Positions 3,972 to 31,116 of a DNA stretch of 32,000 nucleotides are shown piece after piece. Numbering within the stretch: position 1 is the stretch's first letter; each line of letters opens with the position of its first letter. The stretch lies in NCBI GenBank assembly GCA_016700375.1, contig CP065016.1, positions 630,001 through 662,000 of the forward strand, in the 5' to 3' direction. Source of the DNA: Candidatus Saccharimonadota bacterium. GTDB taxonomy: Bacteria; Patescibacteriota; Saccharimonadia; Saccharimonadales; UBA4665. The position numbers and the translations under genes were made by a program. Under the pieces are notes generated by a model. That model saw only the letters and a list, made by a program, of their open reading frames with translations. It was not told the origin of the DNA and made no database searches.

Positions 3972-4045
3972 GAGACAAACCTACGGTTTTTCTCGTCGCG
4001 CGGGGTCGCGGAATAAATCCGCCGACTCCGGCTGCTCTTTTCCCT
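3972..4045 (-). repeat. two-hairpin leader cassette, copy 1 (23S-5S spacer, ends 6 nt before the 5S 5' end)
   Basis: Plus strand GAGACAAACCTACGGTTTTTCTC-gTCGC-...GCGGAATAAATCCGC...GGCTGCTCTTTTCCCT. It is homologous to 5552-5626, 8098-8183 and 9215-9285. Confidence 0.8.
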
Positions 4046-4170: not shown

Positions 4171-4500
4171 TGCACTTTTTGCCTATGAACCATGCACAAA
4201 AATGCACGATTCATAGGTCGTAAAAAGTCAATGTCCCTATTAGTACGCTTCGGCTACACATGTTGCCATGCTTACACCTTGCGCCTATCAACCAGATAGT
4301 CTTTCTGGGGGATCATGGGGAAATCTAATCTTGAGGCTAGTTTCGCGCTTAATATGCTTTCAGCGCTTATCTATTCCGCACGATAGCTACTCAGCAATGC
4401 CCTTGGTAGAACAACTGATACACCAGCGGTGCGTCCGCCCCGGTCCTCTCGTACTAGGGGTAGATCCTCTCAAATTTCCTTGCGTCCACAGCGGATATAA

Positions 4501-4534
<34 letters not shown>

Positions 4535-4562
4535 ACGTACCTCTTTAACCGGCGAACAGCCG

Positions 4563-4593
<31 letters not shown>

Positions 4594-4904
4594 AGATGAG
4601 CCGACATCGAGGTGCCAAACAGCATCGTCTATGTGAACTATTGGATGCTATAAGCCTGTTATCCCCGGCGTAACTTTTATCCGAAAGCGCTGCCGATACC
4701 ACACTCTTGTACAAATGTACTGACAGCGGAAAACTTACTCCGACTTTCGTCCCTGCTCGGCTTGTAGGCCTCACAGTCAAGCTAGCTTATGCGTATACAC
4801 TATCACTACGATTTCCATCCGTAGTTAGCTAACCTTTGAACGCCTCCGATACTCTTTAGGAGGCAACCGCCCCAGTTAAACTACCCACCAGACACGGTCC
4901 GGAA

Positions 4905-5082
4905 GCCGGAAATTGCATGCAATTTCTTCGGCTTGTGTACCAATTATCCTGTCACCTGTCACGCATGAATTAACAATTACCATGTAACAATTGAGTTCCA
5001 ATCGTTACAGGTTACATGGTCATCCAATGTGACACGTTACAGGTTACATGTGACACAACCCAAATTGTATACAATTTGCGGC
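4905..5082 (-). repeat. 23S insertion in about helix 79: GTTACA/TGTCAC module copy 1 with flanking palindromes
   Basis: The core at about 4935-5056 is homologous to 6306-6426 and 7078-7198. It is flanked by GAAATTGCATGCAATTTC (4909-4926) and CAAATTGTATACAATTTG (5061-5078). Confidence 0.85.
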
Positions 5083-5527
5083 TCCCGTAAGAACAAGATC
5101 ATAACAAGGGTGATATTTCACTGGTGGCTCCACCAAGACTAGCGTCTCAGCTTCAAAGCCTCTCACCTATACTACACATGTTATAACCCGGCTCAATGCC
5201 AAGCTGTAGTGAAGCTGCACGGGGTCTTTTCGTCCTGCTGCGGACAGACGGCATCTTTACCGTCAATGCACTTTCACCGAGCTCTTCGTTGAGACAGTAC
5301 CCATATCATTACGCCATTCGTGCGGGTCAGAACTTACCTGACAAGGAATTTCGCTACCTTAGGACGGTTATAGTTACCGCCGCCGTTCACTGGGGCTTCA
5401 GTTCGCTGCATACACAACTCCCCTTAACCTTCCAGCACTGGGCAGGCGTCAGCCCGTATACATCCACTTTCGTGTTAGCACAGACCTATGTTTTTGGTAA
5501 ACAGTTGCATGGGTTCTTTAGCTGCGG

Positions 5528-5800
5528 CCCCCTCACTCTAGCTACGCTAATGAGACAAAACCTACGGTTTTTTCTCATCGCTCCGGGCAAATGGAATACA
5601 TTTGCTCGGGCTGCTCTTTTTCCCTTCTGGGCTATAAGAACAGTTTTCGCATAGTGAGCTTTAGAGGTCAGCTTTCTAATTGATATGTCTCTAAAAATTG
5701 TTCGATTTGTCTCACTGTAAGAAGTTATAAACTTACATGCTGAGACAGGTTTTCAAAAAGAAAACTGGCTAACTCACCTGTCGTAGACAGAGTGAGGGGG
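5528..5800 (-). repeat. 23S insertion in helix 63 region (about 270 nt) containing leader cassette copy 2 (5552-5626)
   Basis: Closed by the 12-bp stem ccccctcactct (5528-5539) with agagtgaggggg (5789-5800). The interior has GAGACAAAACCTACGGTTTTTTCTCATCGC...CAAATGGAATACATTTG...GGGCTGCTCTTTTTCCCTT plus further hairpins. Confidence 0.8.
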
Positions 5801-6288
5801 CAGACCTTATCCCGAAGTTACGGTCGCTTGTTTGCCGAGTTCCTTAACGAAGAATCACTCGTACACCTTGGTCTTCTCGACCTGAGCACCTGTGTCGGTT
5901 TGCGGTACGGATGGCATGTACCACGCGTTATATTGCTTTTCTAGTCAGCACTTTCATAAGAATTCAACCTGATGGTCGTTTCATTCGTACGCATTTCTCG
6001 TACTTAGACGGATATAACCATGAATCCGCTCCTACTACTATGCCGCGCACATATAACAAATACATGCCAGTACGGGAATATTAACCCGTTGTCCATCGCC
6101 TACGCTACGCGCCTCGGCTTAGGACCGACTAACCCTGGGACGATTACCGTGGCCCAGGAAACCTTGCTCTTTCGGTGGGCAGGATTCTCACCTGCCTTAT
6201 GGTTACTCATTCCAACATTCTCACTTCCTCACGCTCCACCAAACCTCACGGTTCAACTTCAACGCTGAGAGGAACGCTCCTCTACCGA

Positions 6289-6443
6289 GCAATGCACAGC
6301 ATTGCAATTATCATGTCACAATTATCATGTCACAATGAATTACCGATTGGCGTGTAACGATTGAAGCTCAATGGTTACATGTTACAGGGTAATCCTAGGT
6401 GACATGTTACAAGTTACATGGTAATCGCGATGCCATGCATCGC
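6289..6443 (-). repeat. 23S insertion in helix 45: GTTACA/TGTCAC module copy 2 with flanking hairpins
   Basis: Core 6306-6426. Flanks are GCAATGCacaGCATTGC (6289-6305) and GCGATGCcatGCATCGC (6427-6443). Confidence 0.85.
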
Positions 6444-7057
6444 TCTCACATCTTCGGTGCTATGCTTAGCCCCGTTACATTTTCCGCGCAGGGTCTCTTG
6501 ACTAGTGAGCTGTTACGCACTCTTTAAATGAATGGCTGCTTCTAAGCCAACATCCTAGTTGTTTAAGAAACCCCACCTCGTTTCCCACTTAGCATAGACT
6601 GAGGGACCTTAGATGGTGATCTGGGCTGTTTCCCTTTTGAGCGACGAGCTTAGCCCCGCCGTTCTAACTGCTGTAGTTCCACTGATAGTATTCGTAGTTT
6701 GTCAAGGGTGGGTAATCTTGCGACCCCCAGTCCGAAACAGAGCTCTACCCCTACCAGCTACCGTACAACGCTAGCCCTAAAGCTATTTCGAGGAGAACCA
6801 GCTATCTCCAGGTTCGATTGGCATTTCACCGCTAACCACAGGTCATCCGGGCGTGTTGCAACTCGCTACGGTTCGGTCCTCCACGTCGTTTTACCGACGC
6901 TTCAACCTGCCCATGGTTAGGTCACCTGGTTTCGGGTCTATTTACTACGACTGAATGCCCTATTCAGACTCGCTTTCGCTTGGCTTACGTCATATGACTT
7001 AAGCTTGCCGTAGCAAATAACTCGTTGGATCGTTCTACAAAAAGCACGCCGTCACGA

Positions 7058-7219
7058 GCTCATCACTAATGATGAGCAATTAGCCTTTATCCTGTCACCT
7101 GTCACAATGGATTACCCATTACTGTGTAACGATTAAGGTTCAAACGTTACAAGTTACATGGTAATTCTATGTGACATGTTACAGGTCAATGGTTACATGC
7201 TCTTCACGCAGTGAAGAGC
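7058..7219 (-). repeat. 23S insertion in helix 25: GTTACA/TGTCAC module copy 3 with flanking hairpins
   Basis: Core 7078-7198. Flanks are GCTCATCActaaTGATGAGC (7058-7077) and GCTCTTCACgcaGTGAAGAGC (7199-7219). Confidence 0.85.
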
Positions 7220-7397
7220 CCGCTCCGACTCCTTGTACGCACACAATTTCAGGTTCTATTTCACTCCCCTCCCGGGGTTCTTTTAACCTTTCCCTCGCGG
7301 TACTTGTTCTCTATCGATCATGTAATATATTTAGCCTTGGAGGGTGGACCCCCCAGATTCAGTCAGGATTTCACGTGCCCCGACCTACTCGACAACC

Positions 7398-7560
7398 GTG
7401 TCTCGCAAGCGAGGCACAGAGTCATGAGTTAAGAGTCACGAGTTAAGAGTAGCTTGCCTCGGCTCTGCCGAGTTTATAAAACAGCAGCTACGCTGCTGGC
7501 ATTTTCCACTCTTGTCTCTTGTCTCTTGTCTCTTTCGTCTGTGTCTTGCTCGCAAGACAC
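7398..7560 (-). repeat. 23S domain I insertion built on GAGTTAAGAG / CTCTTGTCTC repeats
   Basis: The plus strand has ATGAGTTAAGAGTCACGAGTTAAGAG ... CTCTTGTCTCTTGTCTCTTGTCTC. It is bracketed by GTGTCTCGCaaGCGAGGCAC (7398-7417) and GTGTCTTGCtcGCAAGACAC (7541-7560). A related copy sits in the 23S leader at 8335-8395. Confidence 0.75.
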
Positions 7561-7644
7561 TTTGCAAATATAAGGTTGATGAAACTTGGCGTACCGGGCT
7601 ATCACCGTCTATGGCGCAGCTTTCCAACTGCTTCTGCTCGCCTC

Positions 7645-7810
7645 ATCAATTTCTAACCTTATGCTAGACACTGGTAGATCTAGCTGCCTCGTGTGGACTC
7701 CCGCAGAAGCGGACTCCCACACAAGGATGTTTGCAATGTCACAACCCCTAATTTACATTCGTCTACCAACTTATTTGCCAGTAATAAATTACCAGGCAAA
7801 AGCAAAATAG
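7645..7810 (-). other. 23S domain I expansion (about 150 nt extra relative to E. coli about 270-290)
   Basis: The segment between the conserved blocks GGAACAGCCCAAACC and GCAGAAGCAGTTGGAAAG is about 165 nt here, against about 25 nt in E. coli as recalled. It contains hairpins such as GTGTGGGAGTCCGCttctGCGGGAGTCCACAC. Boundaries are approximate. Confidence 0.55.
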
Positions 7811-8097
7811 GTTTGGGCTGTTCCGGATTCGCTCGCCACTACTACCGGAATCGTTGTTTACTTTCTCTTCCTCGCCCTACTAAGATGTTTCAGTTCAGGC
7901 GGTTACCTACTCACTATCCTATATATTCAGATAGCGGTGACTAGACATTACTCTAGCCGGGTTTCCCCATTCGGACATCTCCGGATCAAAACATATTTGG
8001 CTGTTCCCCGGAGCTTTTCGCAGCTCATCACGTCCTTCTTCGGTATTACATGTCAAGGCATCCGTTGTGTGCGCTTGAGTAACTTTTTACGAATAAC

Positions 8098-8183
8098 GGG
8101 ACAAAACTACGTTTTTTCCCGTCGCTTCGCTGCTCTTTTTCCTTAGTGGACAGACTTTTGCCGGAATAAATCCGTCAAAAGTC
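8098..8183 (-). repeat. two-hairpin leader cassette, copy 3 (ends about 5 nt before 23S helix 1)
   Basis: Plus strand GGGACAAAACTACGTTTTTTCCC-gTCGC-ttcGCTGCTCTTTTTCCTT, then GACTTTTG-CCGGAATAAATCCG-tCAAAAGTC. Confidence 0.75.
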
Positions 8184-8301
8184 AGAGTTTGATTTGACGA
8201 GAACAAACTTCGTTTGTTCCGTTTTTGTGCAATTGTCCGATGGTTCTTAAAGAACTATCGGACGAATCACGAACATTTACTCGTAAAAATAAACGCTCGT
8301 G

Positions 8302-8317
8302 TTGACTAGTTATTGGT
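8302..8317 (-). other. 23S precursor processing stem, 5' strand
   Basis: Perfect 16-nt complement of 4155-4170. Confidence 0.75.
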
Positions 8318-8334
8318 ATGTACAAATCAGGGTT

Positions 8335-8395
8335 ATGAGTTAAGACGTAAGAGTTAAGGAATCTTATCTCTTAAATCATGCCTCTTATCTCTAAT
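8335..8395 (-). repeat. GAGTTAAGA / CTCTTATCTC repeat element in the 23S leader (relative of 7398-7560)
   Basis: The plus strand ATGAGTTAAGACGTAAGAGTTAAGGAATCTTATCTCTTAAATCATGCCTCTTATCTCT has the same arm motifs as the domain I insertion, but with a minimal loop. Confidence 0.6.
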
Positions 8396-8695
8396 TTATT
8401 CCAATAGCCGTTTGTCTACTGTGACTATTTGTTCGTAAAAACAAATAGTCTTGCTTTCTTGTTCGCTGTAACTCTCGAGGGGGTACCCCGAGCGATGTCG
8501 AGCGAACAAATTCTCTTCTCTAACATTTCAACTTGTTAAGTTGCGACTCAAGACACTTCACCGTTGTCCGTATCTTTCGAAAAAGAAAAGATGACGATGC
8601 GTTTTTAGCTTGAGTTTAAGCTTAAAGCTTGGCGGTTTATTTCCGTTTGGTCGGTCTTACCGAAGCCTCACTGTCTAAACTCAAGCATCCGTACA

Positions 8696-8827: not shown

Positions 8828-8870
8828 TGGTGGGCGATGAGGGACTCGAACCTCCGACCTCGTCATTATC
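8828..8870 (-). pseudogene. orphan exact copy of the 3' half of tRNA-Ile (anticodon G34 to CCA)
   Basis: 43/43 nt identical to 8907-8949. Identity stops exactly at the first anticodon base. Confidence 0.9.
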
Positions 8871-8906: not shown

Positions 8907-8983
8907 TGGTGGGCGATGAGGGACTCGAACCTCCGACCTCGTCATTATCAGTGACGCGCTCTAACCAGCTGAGCTAATCGCCC
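8907..8983 (-). tRNA. tRNA-Ile (anticodon GAU), CCA encoded
   Basis: Minus sense GGGCGAT-TA-GCTC-AGCTGGTTA-GAGC-G-CGTCA-CTGATAA-TGACG-AGGTC-GGAGG-TTCGAGT-CCCTC-ATCGCCC-A-CCA folds as a canonical cloverleaf. Confidence 0.95.
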
Positions 8984-9032: not shown

Positions 9033-9071
9033 TGTCATTTGCAGTGACGCGCTCTAACCAGCTGAGCTAAT
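9033..9071 (-). pseudogene. orphan copy of the tRNA-Ile D-arm and anticodon arm (5' part), anticodon mutated to GCA
   Basis: 30/30 nt identical to 8949-8978 (9042-9071). Homology continues through the anticodon stem (CTGCAAATGACA versus CTGATAATGACG). The acceptor 5' strand has diverged and there is no T-arm. Confidence 0.85.
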
Positions 9072-9214: not shown

Positions 9215-9285
9215 GAGACACCTTTCATCAGGTTTTCTCATCGCACCGCGCAAATGGAATACATTTGTTCTCGGGCTTCCCTTCC
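9215..9285 (-). repeat. two-hairpin leader cassette, copy 4 (between tRNA-Ala and the minihelix/tRNA-Ile)
   Basis: Plus strand GAGACACCTTTCATCAGGTTTTCTC-aTCGC-accgcgCAAATGGAATACATTTG-ttctcGGGCTTCCCTTCC. Confidence 0.75.
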
Positions 9286-9457: not shown

Positions 9458-10048
9458 GTGATACGCGTGAACATAGGAATAGCACCGGCAATCGACGAAG
9501 ACATAGAAGATATCCGAGCCATACTCGAACATGGCATACGAAGCAAAATGTATCGGGGCGACCTTGCCTGGGGCGAAGCTGCCACTGACGAAAAACAGCT
9601 AAAGGCCATTATTGCTGGCGGCAATATGTACGTAGCCTACACAGAAGAAGACATAGTAGCGGTATTTATGCTGTTCTGGGACGACCCTGGGCGTTGGGGT
9701 CAGCAACCCCCTGTCGCCGGGTACCTACATCGTTTTGTCGTTGCGCCTGGGCTGCGTGGCCAAAACGTGGGTAGCCAAATAATAGACCTCATTTGCAAGG
9801 AGGTTGCCAAAAATGGCCGTCAATTCCTTCGCCTGACCGCCCCAGCCGATAACGAAAAACTAAAGGCATACCACCTAAAAAACGGCTTCACCCGTGCCGA
9901 CCATAAGGCCAACCCGACTCACCTCTCCGAACCCATAGCCTTCTTTGAGCGTCCCGCTGCAGCAGAGAAAAAAGCATCACAAACTTCACAGAAGAAGTCA
10001 TTCGCCCAAAAACTCCGCAACATCCGCCTCAGCCAACGCTATGAATAG
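9458..10048 (+). CDS. GNAT family N-acetyltransferase
   Basis: 196 aa with acetyl-CoA motif A (HRFVVAPGLRGQNVGSQII). The ORF-track start is the GTG at 9458. An in-frame GTG at 9467 lies 7 nt after an extended -10 box TGaTATAGT (9451-9459), so the mRNA may be leaderless. Confidence 0.8.
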   Translation: MIRVNIGIAPAIDEDIEDIRAILEHGIRSKMYRGDLAWGEAATDEKQLKAIIAGGNMYVAYTEEDIVAVFMLFWDDPGRWGQQPPVAGYLHRFVVAPGLRGQNVGSQIIDLICKEVAKNGRQFLRLTAPADNEKLKAYHLKNGFTRADHKANPTHLSEPIAFFERPAAAEKKASQTSQKKSFAQKLRNIRLSQRYE

Positions 10049-10119
10049 CCCCAATTTATGCTGCAGAAACAGGCCTAGGTTAGCCTAGAAGACTTCTGGG
10101 CTTAGGGCGTAGCGATTCA

Positions 10120-10710
10120 TTATTTCTTGTGGAGGTTTTGTCTCATCCCACATAAAATAAACTGGCACCCAGGGCTTCCACTGCGTCTAACAAAATAGAG
10201 GTGATATCTATGCGTTGAAGGCGGCTCAGTAATGACCGCATGTGCTGAGCCCGTTTGAGTCGCTTCATATGCTTGTATTTTCTCTACCTGCGCTTTTGCA
10301 GCAGCACAGTTGTGACCAACCATTACGCACACATAGTTCACTGCGAGTTTTTCGAGCTCAATCGCTTCCGGGTCGGTCGCAGAAGGTACATATGCTGCGG
10401 CTGGGTATCTTCGAGTATTCTCATCGTATCTAGCACGGGTAATGTCTACCCTCGCCCGTGAAAGCTCAACCTGCAACCGAGTATTTTCACGCTCTAACCG
10501 TTTTTCCGGAGTGTTCGGAACATACTTTGCTATAGCTACAGACAGTAACAACAGCATTAGGACACCGAAAAACGTCAATGACGATTCGTTCGTGCGCCAT
10601 CGTTTTATAAATGAGGGCTTCACTTCTATGGGGTTTTTTGGACTAGGAAATTCTCTTGGTTGCATAATAAGTCTAGTATACCTTGGCTTCAACAAGACTG
10701 TCGACCCCAT
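10120..10710 (-). CDS. hypothetical membrane-anchored protein
   Basis: 196-aa ORF with one hydrophobic helix (LTFFGVLMLLLLSVAIA) followed by a charged coiled-coil-like stretch. No family was recognised. The start is uncertain (M1 or M16). Confidence 0.55.
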   Translation of the reverse strand: MGSTVLLKPRYTRLIMQPREFPSPKNPIEVKPSFIKRWRTNESSLTFFGVLMLLLLSVAIAKYVPNTPEKRLERENTRLQVELSRARVDITRARYDENTRRYPAAAYVPSATDPEAIELEKLAVNYVCVMVGHNCAAAKAQVEKIQAYEATQTGSAHAVITEPPSTHRYHLYFVRRSGSPGCQFILCGMRQNLHKK

Positions 10711-10824
10711 GAAACGGCACTCTCATTAGCTTCACATGATCGTAATTTTGAGCTATTACTCTCGATTGCATTTTATTTTAAACATCACAATACTTCATAA
10801 AGAAGTTGCCATATGCTTAGTAGT

Positions 10825-11883
10825 TCACATTGCAGCGATGTTGTAGTGTGTGGCGGAATAGATGTACTGATCTATAAAAAGTTGCTTGAAGGGGACAATG
10901 GAGTTTTGTTCGTAGAAAATGAGTGTGGCTTCTTTGTAAGCCGTTTCGTCTACCGCACGGTACGATATGGGAGCATAGCCGTTTGCAAGCAAAACGCCAT
11001 TTGCGAGCAAACGAGCTGTCCTTTTGTTGCCGTCGGCAAAGGGCTGTATGTAGCTCATACCCAATACAACCATCAGCGCTTTTTCGTAAACAGAATCAAT
11101 TGCGTTGACGTAGACTAGTAGCTGCTCCAATGCCTCTCTAATCTGGAAAGCATTGCCGAGAGGAACATATTCTGTACCAGTTATGCCAACAACCGTCTGT
11201 CGCAAATTTCGGGCAACACCTAATTCTGAGACGGCAAGCTCCTGTATCTTTTCTATTGCTGAGACGCTTGGTTCGTGCCAAAGCTCAAGATTTTCATAGA
11301 CAAATGTAAAGGCAGCTTTCTGCCCGAGCAACATTTGCACCTCAAACTCAGTATTTTTTGGCGACTTTATGCCATAAAGTAGTAGCTGTTCGGTATCGAG
11401 TAGTGTGTATGTATTTCCTTCTATCCGGGCAGATTTCCATGACATCTCTACAACAAAACGCTCCAATTCACGCTTGCGAACATCGCTATTCTCATTCGCT
11501 TTGTTTCGATAACTTTCTGTCGCGCTATCAAGCTGTTCATTTTCTTGCTCACCCACCATTGTAACTGGGGGCAACTCAAATAGATGATGGTTATAGCCCG
11601 TCTGCATTATCCGGTCTTGCTGTGGTTTTCCCAAGTAGGTATCCACGTCAAACGTTCGGAGCAGTAGTCCTTTGCGCTCTAACGTATATCGTATCGACCG
11701 TCCGGCACCAATTCGCGCTAGATACCCCGCGGCCAACAGATTCGAAAGGCTACGTTTTATAGTTACCAGAGATGTTTTTCTCCCGCTACGGGCGTGTATC
11801 TCTGACGAAGAGTAGCTTTTACCCTTCTCGAAGTAGCTTAGAACTATATTATTCGTATCATTCATAGATAATAATCGTATCAT
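10825..11883 (-). CDS. Fic/Doc family protein with N-terminal winged-helix domain; active-site His replaced by Gln
   Basis: The ORF track gives 10825..11946. The Fic core motif reads QPFADGNKRTAR (11011-11046). The first 21 codons of the long form overlap the 16S terminator hairpin. I therefore prefer the ATG at 11883, 9 nt after TATAAT (11898-11893), or the ATG at 11865. Confidence 0.8.
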   Translation of the reverse strand: MIRLLSMNDTNNIVLSYFEKGKSYSSSEIHARSGRKTSLVTIKRSLSNLLAAGYLARIGAGRSIRYTLERKGLLLRTFDVDTYLGKPQQDRIMQTGYNHHLFELPPVTMVGEQENEQLDSATESYRNKANENSDVRKRELERFVVEMSWKSARIEGNTYTLLDTEQLLLYGIKSPKNTEFEVQMLLGQKAAFTFVYENLELWHEPSVSAIEKIQELAVSELGVARNLRQTVVGITGTEYVPLGNAFQIREALEQLLVYVNAIDSVYEKALMVVLGMSYIQPFADGNKRTARLLANGVLLANGYAPISYRAVDETAYKEATLIFYEQNSIVPFKQLFIDQYIYSATHYNIAAM

Positions 11884-11897
11884 AGTGATACGATTAT
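11871..11897. promoter_or_regulatory. 12-bp perfect inverted repeat (operator-like) over the Fic gene promoter/start
   Basis: ATAATCGTATCA-tag-TGATACGATTAT overlaps the TATAAT box and the preferred ATG. Confidence 0.5.
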
Positions 11898-11902
11898 AGT
11901 CA

Positions 11903-11937
11903 ACAGAAAAGAAGGCCTCTCGCAAGTGATGGCCTTC
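11903..11937 (-). terminator. intrinsic terminator after 16S rRNA
   Basis: GAAGGCC-13 nt-GGCCTTC followed on the minus strand by TTTTCTGTT. It lies downstream of the 16S processing stem. Confidence 0.6.
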
Positions 11938-11971
11938 TTTGTTCATTCAGATTGTATCAGTGCTTTCCTGA

Positions 11972-23495: not shown

Positions 23496-24538
23496 TATAC
23501 TAAGCCCCAATCCCTCCGACACCTCGGTGTGTAGAATTGGGGCATATGTGTATGAAGAAGAACCTAACCCGACATCAAGTTATTGCCTATCGTAAACGAG
23601 TGTTAACTGAAGCCGATGCGAAAGGCGCGGCAATCGCTGCCCGAATGTTTGGGATCCATCGGGATACTATCTATGCTTGGCGGATCGAACTGTTCCCGCA
23701 GAAGCCTGGACCAAAAGGCAGGGTATCCTGGCAGACGAATGAAGACATTGAGGATTTGGTGCTACAAATCAGGCTGGGACTATCCTATGGCCCGAAGCGA
23801 ATCGTCGATGAGATGAGTGACTCTGGAATATCCATTGGCGAGAAAGCTGTCCGCGGCATTATTGAACGAGCCGACCTCGTAAAGCACCAGAAACATCCAA
23901 AGAAAAAGCCAACGAGACCGTTCTACGCGCCCTATCCAGGCTACCGAGTGCAGATTGACACTAAGGCTGCACCGGTTCGTCCGGACGAAGATAAACGACG
24001 GAGTCGGAGACAGCAGTTTACAGCGATAGACATTGTCAGCAAGATCCGGTACCTGGCGGTCAAGGATGGCTTGTCGAATAGCAACTCAATCGCCTTTGTG
24101 CGTGAAGCCCTGGCGTTCTACGAATCGATTGGTATTACGGTGGAATGTGTCCAGACAGATAACCACTCCACGTTCACCAATTTGTCTACTGGCGGTAACA
24201 AAAAGCGTGACCATGAGCTCAGACGTATCCACCCGTTCACGCAGTACCTGCTCGACCGGGGCATCGAGCACAAGCTATCCCGACCGGGTACACCCCAACA
24301 TAATGGTTTTGTCGAGCGGAGCCATCGGACAGACGAAGAAGAGTTTTACCACGTCACCAAAACGACCGAGCTTGATGTCGTCGCGTTCAACGAAGCAATG
24401 AAACTATGGCAGAACGAATACAATCGCGTGAGACGGCATAGCAGCTGCAATAACCTGCCGCCAATGGAGCACTATGAAGCGGTATGGAAAGGAACAGTAA
24501 CTCATGTCTAAGTGTCTGGACAATTGGGGCTTAGTACA
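23496..24538 (+). mobile_element. IS481-family insertion sequence, intact (1043 bp)
   Basis: Terminal inverted repeats are TATACTAAGCCCCAAT (23496-23511) and its complement TGTACTAAGCCCCAAT (24538-24523). A 6-bp direct duplication TCCTGA sits at 23490-23495 and 24539-24544. There is a single DDE transposase ORF. Confidence 0.9.
23537..24511 (+). CDS. IS481-family transposase (HTH + rve/DDE integrase core)
   Basis: The N-terminal HTH is AARMFGIHRDTIYAWR. The DDE residues lie in VQIDTK, VQTDNHSTF and NGFVERSHRT. The likely real start is the ATG at 23546 or 23552 (MKKNLTRHQ) rather than the TTG at 23537. Confidence 0.9.
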   Translation: MGHMCMKKNLTRHQVIAYRKRVLTEADAKGAAIAARMFGIHRDTIYAWRIELFPQKPGPKGRVSWQTNEDIEDLVLQIRLGLSYGPKRIVDEMSDSGISIGEKAVRGIIERADLVKHQKHPKKKPTRPFYAPYPGYRVQIDTKAAPVRPDEDKRRSRRQQFTAIDIVSKIRYLAVKDGLSNSNSIAFVREALAFYESIGITVECVQTDNHSTFTNLSTGGNKKRDHELRRIHPFTQYLLDRGIEHKLSRPGTPQHNGFVERSHRTDEEEFYHVTKTTELDVVAFNEAMKLWQNEYNRVRRHSSCNNLPPMEHYEAVWKGTVTHV

Positions 24539-28156: not shown

Positions 28157-28867
28157 TTAGTCGACACGTTGAGCTTGCGAGCCAAGCTGGGCATCGAGAC
28201 ACTTGTTCACCTCGGCATCGGCCAGCTTATTGAGCTCGCGCGGCACGTGGTCAAATGACACTTTCTCAAACTTTGGAAGAAGCTGTTGTATAGCATCGTG
28301 AATAGGCCATAGGTCGCGGTTTTTCACTTTGAATATTTTTTTCATTTGGTTCACCACCAGCATACTGTCCATATACACGTGCACGCTCCTCGCCTGAAGC
28401 CGTAGCGCAGCCTCCAAGCCAAACTTCAAGGCCTGATACTCCGCCTGATTGTTTGTTGTAATTCCCAGAAAAACCCCCTCACTATGTACGATGTTCCCGT
28501 CCATGTCGAGCAGTACATACCCGCTTGCGGAGGGGCCAGGATTGCCCCGTGAGCCTCCATCCGCATACAATTGCACCTCTGTTATTTGCGTAGTATTTTT
28601 ATCATCACTACTTTCCGGTACTCCTTTTTCATCGCCCTCGGCAACTGCGTCAATCCTCTTTGCGAGCTCCCAGTCTCGGTCTGTAATCATCTGCTTCGGC
28701 TCGTGTGTCGACAGCCAAAATTCAACAACATTCCATTCATTCTGCCAGCGCGGATGATGGTCGAGGTCATTCACAATTGCACTCACCTTTTCCATAAATG
28801 CCCATGCATGATGAAAGTCGCTAAAGACAAATTGTTTATAAAGCCCATGTTTTGTTTCGGTCCACAT
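28157..28867 (-). CDS. fusion protein: pterin-4a-carbinolamine dehydratase (PCD/DCoH)-like domain + RNase HI-like domain
   Basis: Residues 1-75 match PCD (FVFSDFHHAWAFMEKVSAIVNDLDHHPRWQNEWNVVEFWLSTHE...ITDRDWELAKRID). Residues about 100-236 match RNase H, with the DEDD residues in YADGGSRGNPG, NNQAEYQAL, VYMDSMLVV and NKLADAEVN. Confidence 0.85.
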   Translation of the reverse strand: MWTETKHGLYKQFVFSDFHHAWAFMEKVSAIVNDLDHHPRWQNEWNVVEFWLSTHEPKQMITDRDWELAKRIDAVAEGDEKGVPESSDDKNTTQITEVQLYADGGSRGNPGPSASGYVLLDMDGNIVHSEGVFLGITTNNQAEYQALKFGLEAALRLQARSVHVYMDSMLVVNQMKKIFKVKNRDLWPIHDAIQQLLPKFEKVSFDHVPRELNKLADAEVNKCLDAQLGSQAQRVD

Positions 28868-30433: not shown

Positions 30434-30685
30434 ATGAGATATCACTGCCTGTATAAACTATCTGGGAATACCCGCTGTAACCGCTCGATACCACGCGGTT
30501 ATCTTCTCTGTAAAGAGCACAGAGGTGTGCATACCGTTTTGCCGGTGGTTGAGCCGACAATATCTCAAAACCGGCTTGCTCGAGGCGTAGAAGCAATCTG
30601 TGTAGCTCGTACATCAATGGCTGAACCTCACCCAAAGGGCAAGATATTCGTAAGAGATAAAATCGGCCGGTCGGTGCTGCTATGA
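30434..30685 (+). CDS. hypothetical small Cys/His-rich protein
   Basis: 83 aa. An ATGA stop/start overlap with the next gene (30682-30685) suggests translational coupling. It has a CxxxxxxxxxC...CxxH pattern near the N-terminus. Confidence 0.4.
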   Translation: MRYHCLYKLSGNTRCNRSIPRGYLLCKEHRGVHTVLPVVEPTISQNRLARGVEAICVARTSMAEPHPKGKIFVRDKIGRSVLL

Positions 30686-31116
30686 CAGCCTCAGGTATCG
30701 GTCGGCCGCCACAATTCTCAAATGCCGCACAGTTACAGTTATTGATAGACAATTACTTTTCTTCAGCCACAAAGTCATCACCCGCAAGACCTCTAACTAT
30801 AACCGGCCTTATGCTTCACTGCGGGTTTGAGAGTCGGCAGTCATTTTATGACTATGAGAAAAAACCCGAGTTTTCTTACACTATAAAAAGAGCCCGGCTT
30901 ATGATTGAAAACGTTTATGAGGAACTCTTGCAGAGCGGTCGAGGAGCGGGCGCAATTTTTGCTCTTAAAAACTTCGGCTGGACGGATAAAAGCGAAGTAA
31001 GTATTGAAAGGGACTCAATAGACTATTCGAGCATGACAGATGAAGAACTTGAATCACGTCTGATAGACAGCATTAAAAGAGATTACGGCGTGACGCTTCC
31101 ACGAAAGATGCTGTAG
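30682..31116 (+). CDS. phage terminase small subunit-like protein
   Basis: 144 aa. It shows the TerS-like pattern GRPPQFSNAAQLQLLIDNYF...ITGLMLHCGF...FYDYEKKPEFSYTIKRARLMIE...IFALKNFGWTDK. Confidence 0.7.
   Translation: MTASGIGRPPQFSNAAQLQLLIDNYFSSATKSSPARPLTITGLMLHCGFESRQSFYDYEKKPEFSYTIKRARLMIENVYEELLQSGRGAGAIFALKNFGWTDKSEVSIERDSIDYSSMTDEELESRLIDSIKRDYGVTLPRKML

Follow-up and report, generated by a model that had tools for sequence, protein, structure and literature searches.

The 32,000-nt stretch analysed here (contig CP065016.1, positions 630,001 to 662,000; hereafter the window) contains a 23S ribosomal RNA (rRNA) gene on the minus strand at 4219-8089 (Rfam LSU_rRNA_bacteria, 2473.7 bits, model positions 1-2925). 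At 3871 nt, the gene exceeds the Rfam model by ~950 nt owing to inserts. Four of these inserts are modules in which a long core hairpin stands between two look-alike hairpins, and these twin-hairpin modules are the subject of this study. The gene adjoins an open reading frame (ORF) for a pilin-like protein whose homologues are annotated as Candidatus Saccharibacteria or Saccharimonadales. Judging from these homologues, the window is therefore part of a genome of the candidate phyla radiation (CPR, Patescibacteria).

Aligning the gene with E. coli rrlH and with relatives gave the positions of the inserts. In each module, L denotes the 5' hairpin and R the 3' hairpin in the RNA sense, and all four modules lie with the gene on the minus strand. 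The helix 79 module (4909-5078; E. coli ~2200-2212) consists of R at 4909-4926, a GTTACA-family core at 4927-5060 and L at 5061-5078. Cores of the same family are found in the helix 45 module (6289-6443; E. coli ~1172), with R at 6289-6305, the core at 6306-6426 and L at 6427-6443, and in the helix 25 module (7058-7219; E. coli ~545), with R at 7058-7077, the core at 7078-7198 and L at 7199-7219. The domain I module (7398-7560; E. coli ~355-368) has R at 7398-7417, a core of a second family (GAGACAAG/CTCTTAAC) at 7418-7540 and L at 7541-7560. An initial annotation of this DNA had reported the eight hairpins and the two core families, and direct reading of the window bore this out: every hairpin sequence is present at its position, and the four bracketed cores are three GTTACA-rich copies and one GAGACAAG/CTCTTAAC copy. 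Seven of the eight hairpins have perfectly palindromic stems; that at 7398-7417 carries a single T.G on the plus strand, which is C.A in the RNA. With the host stem, L, the core and R make up a four-way junction, and not the three-way junction that had been suggested. The cores are ~120 nt long and made of lineage-specific short repeats. The three GTTACA-rich copies are 75-83% identical, and each resembles its own reverse complement and is thus an imperfect palindrome. Folded alone, the cores of the four modules form long hairpins with z-scores of -4.2 to -5.6 (-4.9 at helix 79, with -51.3 kcal/mol; -5.6 at helix 45).

The twin-hairpin pattern is genuine and goes beyond chance. In a census of perfect hairpins of at least 7 bp and of twin pairs defined by strict criteria, the 3.9-kb 23S gene has 9 hairpins and 3 twin pairs. 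There are 11 hairpins in the 22.3 kb of the window that lie outside the rRNA operon and 6 in the 4-kb spacer between the 16S and 23S genes, with no twin pair in either. A 1.37-Mb sample of other non-rRNA Saccharibacteria DNA, drawn from species other than that of the window, has 475 hairpins and 4 twin pairs, two of which are plain tandem duplications. No copies of the cores were found elsewhere in the window or in the 1.37-Mb sample.

To collect relatives, metagenomes were scanned for a 30-nt 23S pattern that is specific to Saccharibacteria and lies immediately 5' of helix 25. The scan gave 120 further loci (loci outside the window are cited by L numbers), and the sequence between conserved anchors was taken out at each site for comparison. 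A scan of contigs for the pilin-like protein found 80 loci, with a 23S gene adjoining in two only; the same pilin-like gene lies beside the 23S gene in the complete Saccharibacteria genome CP064992 (L004/L006) and in the dolphin-oral metagenome-assembled genome L010. Helix 25 is empty or native in 110 of 123 loci (tips such as CCCTTCGGGG) and longer, with extracted lengths of 121-179 nt, in 13. At helix 45, 62 of 76 loci are empty or native and 14 longer, and at helix 79 the numbers are 17 and 29 of 46. The domain I site is empty or native in 43 of 79 loci and carries intermediate single hairpins in 30; four of its six long inserts are twin-hairpin modules. Most filled sites have the order host stem, L hairpin, long core hairpin, R hairpin and host stem. 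A host stem of 3-4 bp is kept in the filled helix 25 sites, and many of the hairpin loops are CUUG or GNRA tetraloops. By this comparison, the layout is general in the Saccharibacteria lineage. In the survey of Tsurumaki et al. 2024, 64 of 66 Saccharibacteria rRNA insertions are at most 250 bp long and lack introns or homing endonucleases, and many lie, uncharacterised, at the classical sites of intervening sequences (IVSs) (PMC11270868). These short insertions are almost certainly the same objects as the twin-hairpin modules. Internal anatomy, twin hairpins, covariation and reassortment are not described in the searched passages of that survey (PMC11270868).

The initial annotation had proposed that both hairpins of a pair are kept able to fold. 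We examined 26 curated units from the window and its relatives, many of which are phylogenetically related. Their local stems are canonical at 398 of 414 pairs (96%; 388 Watson-Crick and 10 G.U). L and R differ at 63 pair positions, and at 42 of these both sides have changed with pairing kept in both hairpins; the remainder comprises 5 one-sided wobbles and 16 pair-breaking differences. In an alignment of ten sequences of the helix 25 hairpin family (GCTCTTCA / GCTCRTCG), the local structure is 97.5% paired and 5 of 16 local pairs show two-sided changes. The covariation score is 0.264, compared with 0.148 after shuffling (0 of 500 shuffles reach it), and pairing collapses once the partner is slid. 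One pair is AU in five sequences, GU in three and GC in two, so that G.U intermediates occur in the RNA sense; the R hairpin of L114 (CTCGTCG/CGATGAG) is an example. These data uphold the proposal and support maintenance of both hairpins at the RNA level.

The modules may also pair across the core. In all four window modules, energy minimisation yields a single long hairpin in which L is paired with R; the best structure with both hairpins forced local is less stable by 5.5-12.3 kcal/mol. Comparison of the L loops with the reverse complement of the R loops gives 48 matches, as against 16 for direct identity; in 2000 permutations of the loops, the mean was 29.8 (sd 3.4) and 48 was never reached. 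The helix 79 loops covary (GGA/TCC, AGA/TCT, GAA/TTC), and four loop-loop columns of the helix 25 family are paired in 34 of 40 cases, with an AU/UA swap at one column. Kissing loops were rejected as an explanation: the three-nucleotide loops are too small, and the complementarity suits an extended duplex better. The stems therefore favour the local fold, and the loops and energies favour the extended fold. The initial annotation took pairing of the flanks with each other as evidence against its view, and on this point the outcome is not cleanly negative: energy models and loop complementarity both back L:R pairing. The simplest reading, which leans on comparative data and energy models, is a bistable, cruciform-like element. 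Each L/R difference costs the extended fold two non-Watson-Crick pairs and costs the local hairpins nothing. Among 89 unique inserts, folding is better for the sense strand than for the antisense strand in 72 and worse in 16, a modelled asymmetry that argues for RNA-level selection on rRNA inserts in general and not on twin modules specifically.

Some of these features would also be expected of an ordinary long-hairpin IVS, in which the extended fold alone matters as an RNase III stem and local palindromy is an unselected footprint of the insert's origin, through templated arm copying or quasi-palindrome correction. The minimum-energy fold is indeed the extended hairpin, the loops are complementary, the whole module is a single large imperfect palindrome, and the inner arms are exact complements of their outer neighbours, as a templated process would give. 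However, the hairpins of one family persist across lineages with five pairs changed on both sides via RNA-sense G.U, which points to ongoing maintenance of the local stems at the RNA level. All ten family members have a mismatch at one column pair of the extended fold, and DNA palindrome correction should perfect the cores too, which are only ~70% self-complementary. We therefore regard the ordinary-hairpin explanation as quite unlikely. Selection for RNase III dyad symmetry as the sole cause of the palindromy was rejected separately; it predicts local breaks as frequent as cross breaks, and this is not what the units show.

The initial annotation explained the pairs by a hairpin-sized target-site duplication of a palindromic helix tip. 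In favour of a duplicated native tip, helix 45 tips such as those of L010 (GCTCGTGCtttGCACGAGC) and L096 (ACTTGTGCtatGCATGAGT) resemble both L and R in L006, L108, L160 and L149. The outer arms at helix 45 (the 5' arm of L and the 3' arm of R) are the native arms and pair mutually through G.U. The inner arms are exact complements of the adjoining outer arms, and inner arms pair with each other through A.C. This rule holds for every transition difference at helix 45 and the domain I site, and the window helix 79 module obeys it at its single transition difference. At helix 79, the outer arms (CAAATTG..CAATTTC in the window) match the basal stem of a pre-existing extension in relatives. The stems of the helix 25 family have 6 of 8 base pairs in common with the helix 45 tip, suggesting a common origin at helix 45. 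We infer that the hairpin pair was derived from a native helix tip, most clearly at helix 45, and that whole modules spread afterwards. In part, this bears out the duplicated helix tip of the initial annotation.

A direct duplication at each site is contradicted by several observations. The loops of a direct repeat should be identical but are reverse complements, and the inner arms are complements rather than copies of the opposite native arm. The 110 empty helix 25 tips are unrelated to the hairpins that flank the filled sites, an outcome which the initial annotation itself had named as refuting and which applies at that site. The empty domain I site has no hairpin whatsoever, and hairpins of one family recur at other helices (see below). 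A duplication could possibly have been followed by compensation in the inner arms only, with the outer arms held by the mature helix. We found no DNA mechanism that would yield complements arm by arm. Models of the fold-back or P-nucleotide type at the DNA level were rejected, as the loop-less or flank-derived palindromes that they predict are not seen. Site-specific inversion or integration sites (hix, dif or attC-like) were also rejected; a single genome carries several unrelated hairpin families, and a search for a matching recombinase gave none. Small dispersed repeats of the Nostoc type and short tandemly repeated repetitive sequences were set aside because the neighbouring proteins point to Saccharibacteria.

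These observations also bear on a DNA transposon or miniature inverted-repeat transposable element (MITE) that duplicates a 17-21 bp palindromic target, or on a cassette swapped by a hairpin-recognising recombinase. The cores are MITE-sized imperfect palindromes with several copies per genome, occupancy changes quickly, both helix 45 flanks resemble the native tip, and an rve-family integrase gene lies within the window. On the other hand, no direct target repeat was found at the modules: the loops are inverted-complementary, the native tips are unrelated (helix 25) or absent (domain I site), and filled and empty alleles differ in the basal stem, as in a replacement. Neither the window nor the 1.37-Mb sample holds dispersed copies outside the rRNA operon. 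One core family is bounded by differing hairpins, unlike the ends of IS200/IS605 or of REP/RAYT (repetitive extragenic palindrome and its associated tyrosine transposase) elements, where the same sub-terminal hairpins recur. Pfam revealed no Y1/HUH transposase, only the rve integrase, in 17 of 27 window ORFs of at least 120 aa, and no transposase is known to yield a 17-21 bp duplication. A transposon or recombinase cassette is therefore very unlikely. The modules do resemble the Correia elements of Neisseria and the Rickettsia palindromic elements, which are multi-copy imperfect palindromes of ~100-150 nt that form long RNA hairpins, serve as RNase III substrates and are sometimes located inside RNA genes. 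Those elements are scattered genome-wide, with terminal inverted repeats that are fixed and target duplications that are short and direct, whereas the cores described here have been found in the rRNA operon only, between site- or module-specific hairpins.

Comparison of sites and genomes indicates that hairpins and cores are separable parts. The helix 25 hairpins have the consensus GCTCTTCR..YGAAGAGC for L and GCTCRTCR..YGAYGAGC for R and occur in at least 7 lineages around unrelated core families (GTTACA, GTTAACGG, CATTGA, TAACAGA and others). The window pair, GCTCTTCA.. / GCTCRTCG.., is also present in L176, L108, L096, L114, L155 and L088, where it brackets unrelated cores. Conversely, the GAGACAAG core lies in domain I in the window and in helix 45 in L176, between different hairpins. 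The helix 25 hairpin family is found at helix 63 as well (L138, L108), and helix 45 of L132 carries a diverged, imperfectly paired relative of it. In L006, the domain I module is paralogous to the helix 45 module of the same gene (AACTTG..CAAGATTTAGCAG in both), and the hairpins of its domain I module are homologous to those of the window domain I module. Hairpin pairs at different sites are thus unrelated within the window, as the initial annotation stated, but this does not extend to other genomes, in which the same families appear at other helices. Because the same pairs occur at helices 25 and 63 and L006 has paralogous modules, the hairpins appear to travel with modules, and on this comparison whole modules move between helix tips. 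The cores would turn over faster than the hairpins.

Turnover can be followed between very close relatives. L135 is 100% identical to the window across a 600-nt conserved 23S stretch and shares its domain I module (core ~90% identical) and helix 45 module (core 98%). However, it has no insert at helix 25 (CCGGCTTGTCCGG) and a different, non-twin insert at helix 79. Entire modules thus distinguish rRNA alleles at what seems to be the level of strains. L176, with only 95% identity in conserved rRNA, nevertheless has the helix 25 module of the window on the same basal stem. Since the basal stem is not the same in filled and empty alleles, module gain looks like replacement of a helix tip and not like clean insertion. 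Modules are probably transferred between strains through recombination within the conserved rRNA sequence on either side. Natural competence is a trait of Saccharibacteria (PMC10187176), which makes recombination after DNA uptake plausible.

Our preferred explanation is that the modules are IVS or expansion-type inserts at universally permissive helix tips (helices 25, 45, 63 and 79 and domain I) of Saccharibacteria 23S rRNA, probably cut by RNase III. We hold it tentatively, by analogy with known systems, and give it a little less than an even chance. In bacterial 23S rRNA, IVSs in helix 25 or 45 (Salmonella, Campylobacter, Coxiella, Leptospira and others) are removed by RNase III without religation (PMC11270868, PMC2801512, PMC4990558). 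As in the modules, the loop of one of the same two helices is replaced by a stem-loop of ~100-200 nt, and the inserts are sporadic among close relatives and tolerated in reduced genomes (PMC11270868, PMC2801512, PMC4990558). Alignment to rrlH and to empty relatives places the modules at the tips of helices 25 and 45 with the loop replaced. An extended stem-loop is predicted by the minimum-energy folds and the core z-scores of -4.2 to -5.6, and the distribution among close relatives is sporadic (13/123 at helix 25 and 14/76 at helix 45; helix 25 empty in L135). Position, size, sporadic distribution and long duplex character would thus fit IVSs removed by RNase III. An RNase III homologue was detected in the Saccharibacteria locus L075 (E 3e-31) with an E. 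coli query sequence. Over the region of the inserts, Rfam shows rRNA only, with no group I or group II intron fold, and the inserts (120-170 nt) contain no ORF and hence no homing-endonuclease ORF, although introns and endonuclease insertions are common in CPR rRNA. The modules differ from the bacterial IVSs in that the stem base is dyad-symmetric and foldable as two look-alike hairpins, in that they are also found in helices 63 and 79, domain I and the leader, and in that hairpins and cores reassort; excision, moreover, is here an expectation drawn from these likenesses. The twin-hairpin architecture is a structural variant of the class of 23S IVSs and CPR short inserts and not a separate category.

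The main rival is that the modules are never excised and remain part of the mature 50S subunit, where they would form branched extensions on its surface; the twins would simply be two of the arms at a stable four-way junction. The inserts fall on the universal variable regions at helices 25, 45, 63 and 79, which we take to correspond to the expansion segments ES7, ES15, ES27 and ES31, respectively. As in the expansion segments of eukaryotes and archaea, the same permissive helices are used, helices are added on a retained trunk, and the junctions are branched. The covariation of the local hairpins and the tetraloops would suit a stable branched fold, and the modules are tolerated in an apparently single-copy rRNA operon. 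In contrast to expansion segments, which are retained, GC-rich and slowly evolving, the modules are AU-rich and repeat-built and come and go in near-identical rRNAs. Their long, near-perfect AU-rich duplexes would be substrates for RNase III, of which the phylum has a homologue, and loop-loop complementarity serves nothing in a fixed four-way junction. Presence and absence among rRNAs identical over 600 nt argues for dispensability, and helices 25 and 45 are the classical sites of excised, RNase III-processed IVSs (PMC11270868). On balance, we find retention doubtful.

If the modules are processed IVSs, their two alternative folds could act one after the other. In the local fold, L, the core and R would stand on the host stem as a four-way junction; in the alternative, the host stem, the L:R duplex and the core would be stacked as one helix. 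During transcription, a host arm would be caught by its neighbouring complement and so be insulated until its distant partner is made. The finished module would then convert to the extended duplex, or present the long core, and RNase III would cleave it as in the classical helix 25 and 45 IVSs. Afterwards, the outer arms could re-form a native-like helix, or the hairpins could cap the new ends. Mutually exclusive folds, each with comparative support, have been proposed to be sequential in processing for the ring and hairpin models of the yeast internal transcribed spacer 2 and for the transient pairing of the E. coli leader with 16S rRNA. These cases are analogous in mechanism only; they concern other molecules and have no sequence relation to the modules. 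A more far-reaching version would make the module a previously unrecognised RNA "cruciform switch" cassette, in which capture is followed by branch migration to a dyad-symmetric duplex and a central cut restores the native helix. Such a cassette would descend from the helix 45 tip, copy itself between tips of the rRNA operon by a non-transpositional route and swap its core independently; we think this unlikely. A tRNA-like cloverleaf (host stem, L, core and R) for RNase P and RNase Z was also considered and rejected, as ARAGORN finds only the two real tRNAs and the hairpins are without T- and D-loop features.

Several points weigh against the view of the modules as processed, bistable inserts derived from a helix tip. 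Kinship among the 26 units means that the counts overstate the number of independent events, and the local complementarity may in part reflect the process that generated the arms and not selection. The cross structure of the helix 25 family is 84% paired overall; apart from the stem column pair mismatched in 10 of 10 sequences, another is mismatched in 8 of 10, and such mismatches are not expected under a simple model of an RNase III stem. The two folds rest on different kinds of evidence, and both need not be functional. The helix 25 modules show no asymmetry between sense and antisense folding (6 vs 5). The outer G.U / inner A.C rule is reversed in three helix 25 units; with this reversal and too few independent events, it was not taken as proof of origin. 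Lastly, the route from helix 45 to other helices is without a demonstrated mechanism.

Some other inserts and flanking elements on the minus strand of the window have parts of the same anatomy. The helix 63 insert (5511-5800; E. coli ~1708-1767) contains a looser twin at 5532-5554 and 5773-5796. Its host-stem arms, CCCCCTCACTC and GAGTGAGGGGG, each have a nearby local complement, giving in the RNA two hairpins that start with CTCAC.. and CTCAT... A further domain I insert (7642-7813; E. coli ~270-290) has no hairpin pair. The statement that every insertion is bracketed by twin hairpins was consequently too strong. In the 23S leader (8268-8450), a region usually removed in maturation, hairpins at 8423-8450 and 8268-8301 with the common loop UUUUUACGA stand around a hairpin of the second core family at 8325-8395. 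Both are kept in L006 with compensatory changes, and the core-type hairpin is missing there. A search of the leader with Rfam at a permissive threshold gave nothing relevant. A third copy of the loop motif UUUUUACGA lies at 10905-10918. Another repeated element, which we call the class 2 module (~GGGAAAAAGAGCAGCC..GAGCAAATGTATTCCATTTGC..GCGATGAGAAAAAACCGTAGGTTTTGTCTCAT in the RNA sense), occurs on the minus strand at 3977-4044, 5550-5630, 8103-8149 and 9225-9270. Copies lie on the flanks of the 23S and 5S genes, ahead of tRNA-Ala and inside the helix 63 insert (5550-5630). In other Saccharibacteria the element is found in domain I, helix 25, helix 45 and helix 79 inserts (L119, L176, L101, L170, L097, L099, L202). 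It has the look of a common processing signal.

The window also contains genes for 5S rRNA, 16S rRNA, two tRNAs and RNase P RNA. The distance of 4 kb between the 16S and 23S genes is unusual, and the interval includes a Fic-domain gene, a 196-aa ORF of unknown function and a gene for a GNAT acetyltransferase (9458-11946). The corresponding interval of the relative L004 contains a GNAT gene and fragments of an rve integrase. Downstream of the tRNA-Ile gene (8907-8983, minus strand) lies a perfect copy, 43 nt long, of its 3' half with the CCA; upstream lies a degenerate copy of the 5' half in which the anticodon loop is changed. These partial copies are at 8828-8870 and 9034-9071 on the minus strand. 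Further downstream are ORFs for an rve-family integrase (23537-24511), a protein with pterin-4a-dehydratase and RNase H-like parts (28157-28867) and a phage gp3-like packaging protein (30682-31116). These ORFs suggest mobile or prophage DNA near the RNase P RNA and LOOT RNA genes. Outside the phylum, one 23S gene of E. coli Nissle 1917 (L002, NZ_CP007799.1 4464057-4467326) is annotated as 3270 nt long, ~366 nt longer than rrlH.

The short rRNA inserts of Saccharibacteria have been counted before, and we did not find a description of their anatomy in the literature searched; they now have a defined architecture that can be tested. The modules provide a natural case of competing folds, in which local and long-range pairing both leave a comparative signal. 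This is relevant to how long-range rRNA helices may be protected during transcription and to how intervening sequences may be recognised for removal. The comparison also indicates that rRNA helix tips in reduced genomes are remodelled over very short time scales, with consequences for rRNA-based assembly, binning and phylogeny of CPR bacteria, and the modules are potential strain-level markers. Some Saccharibacteria can now be cultured and transformed, so that the predictions made here for these organisms are directly testable.

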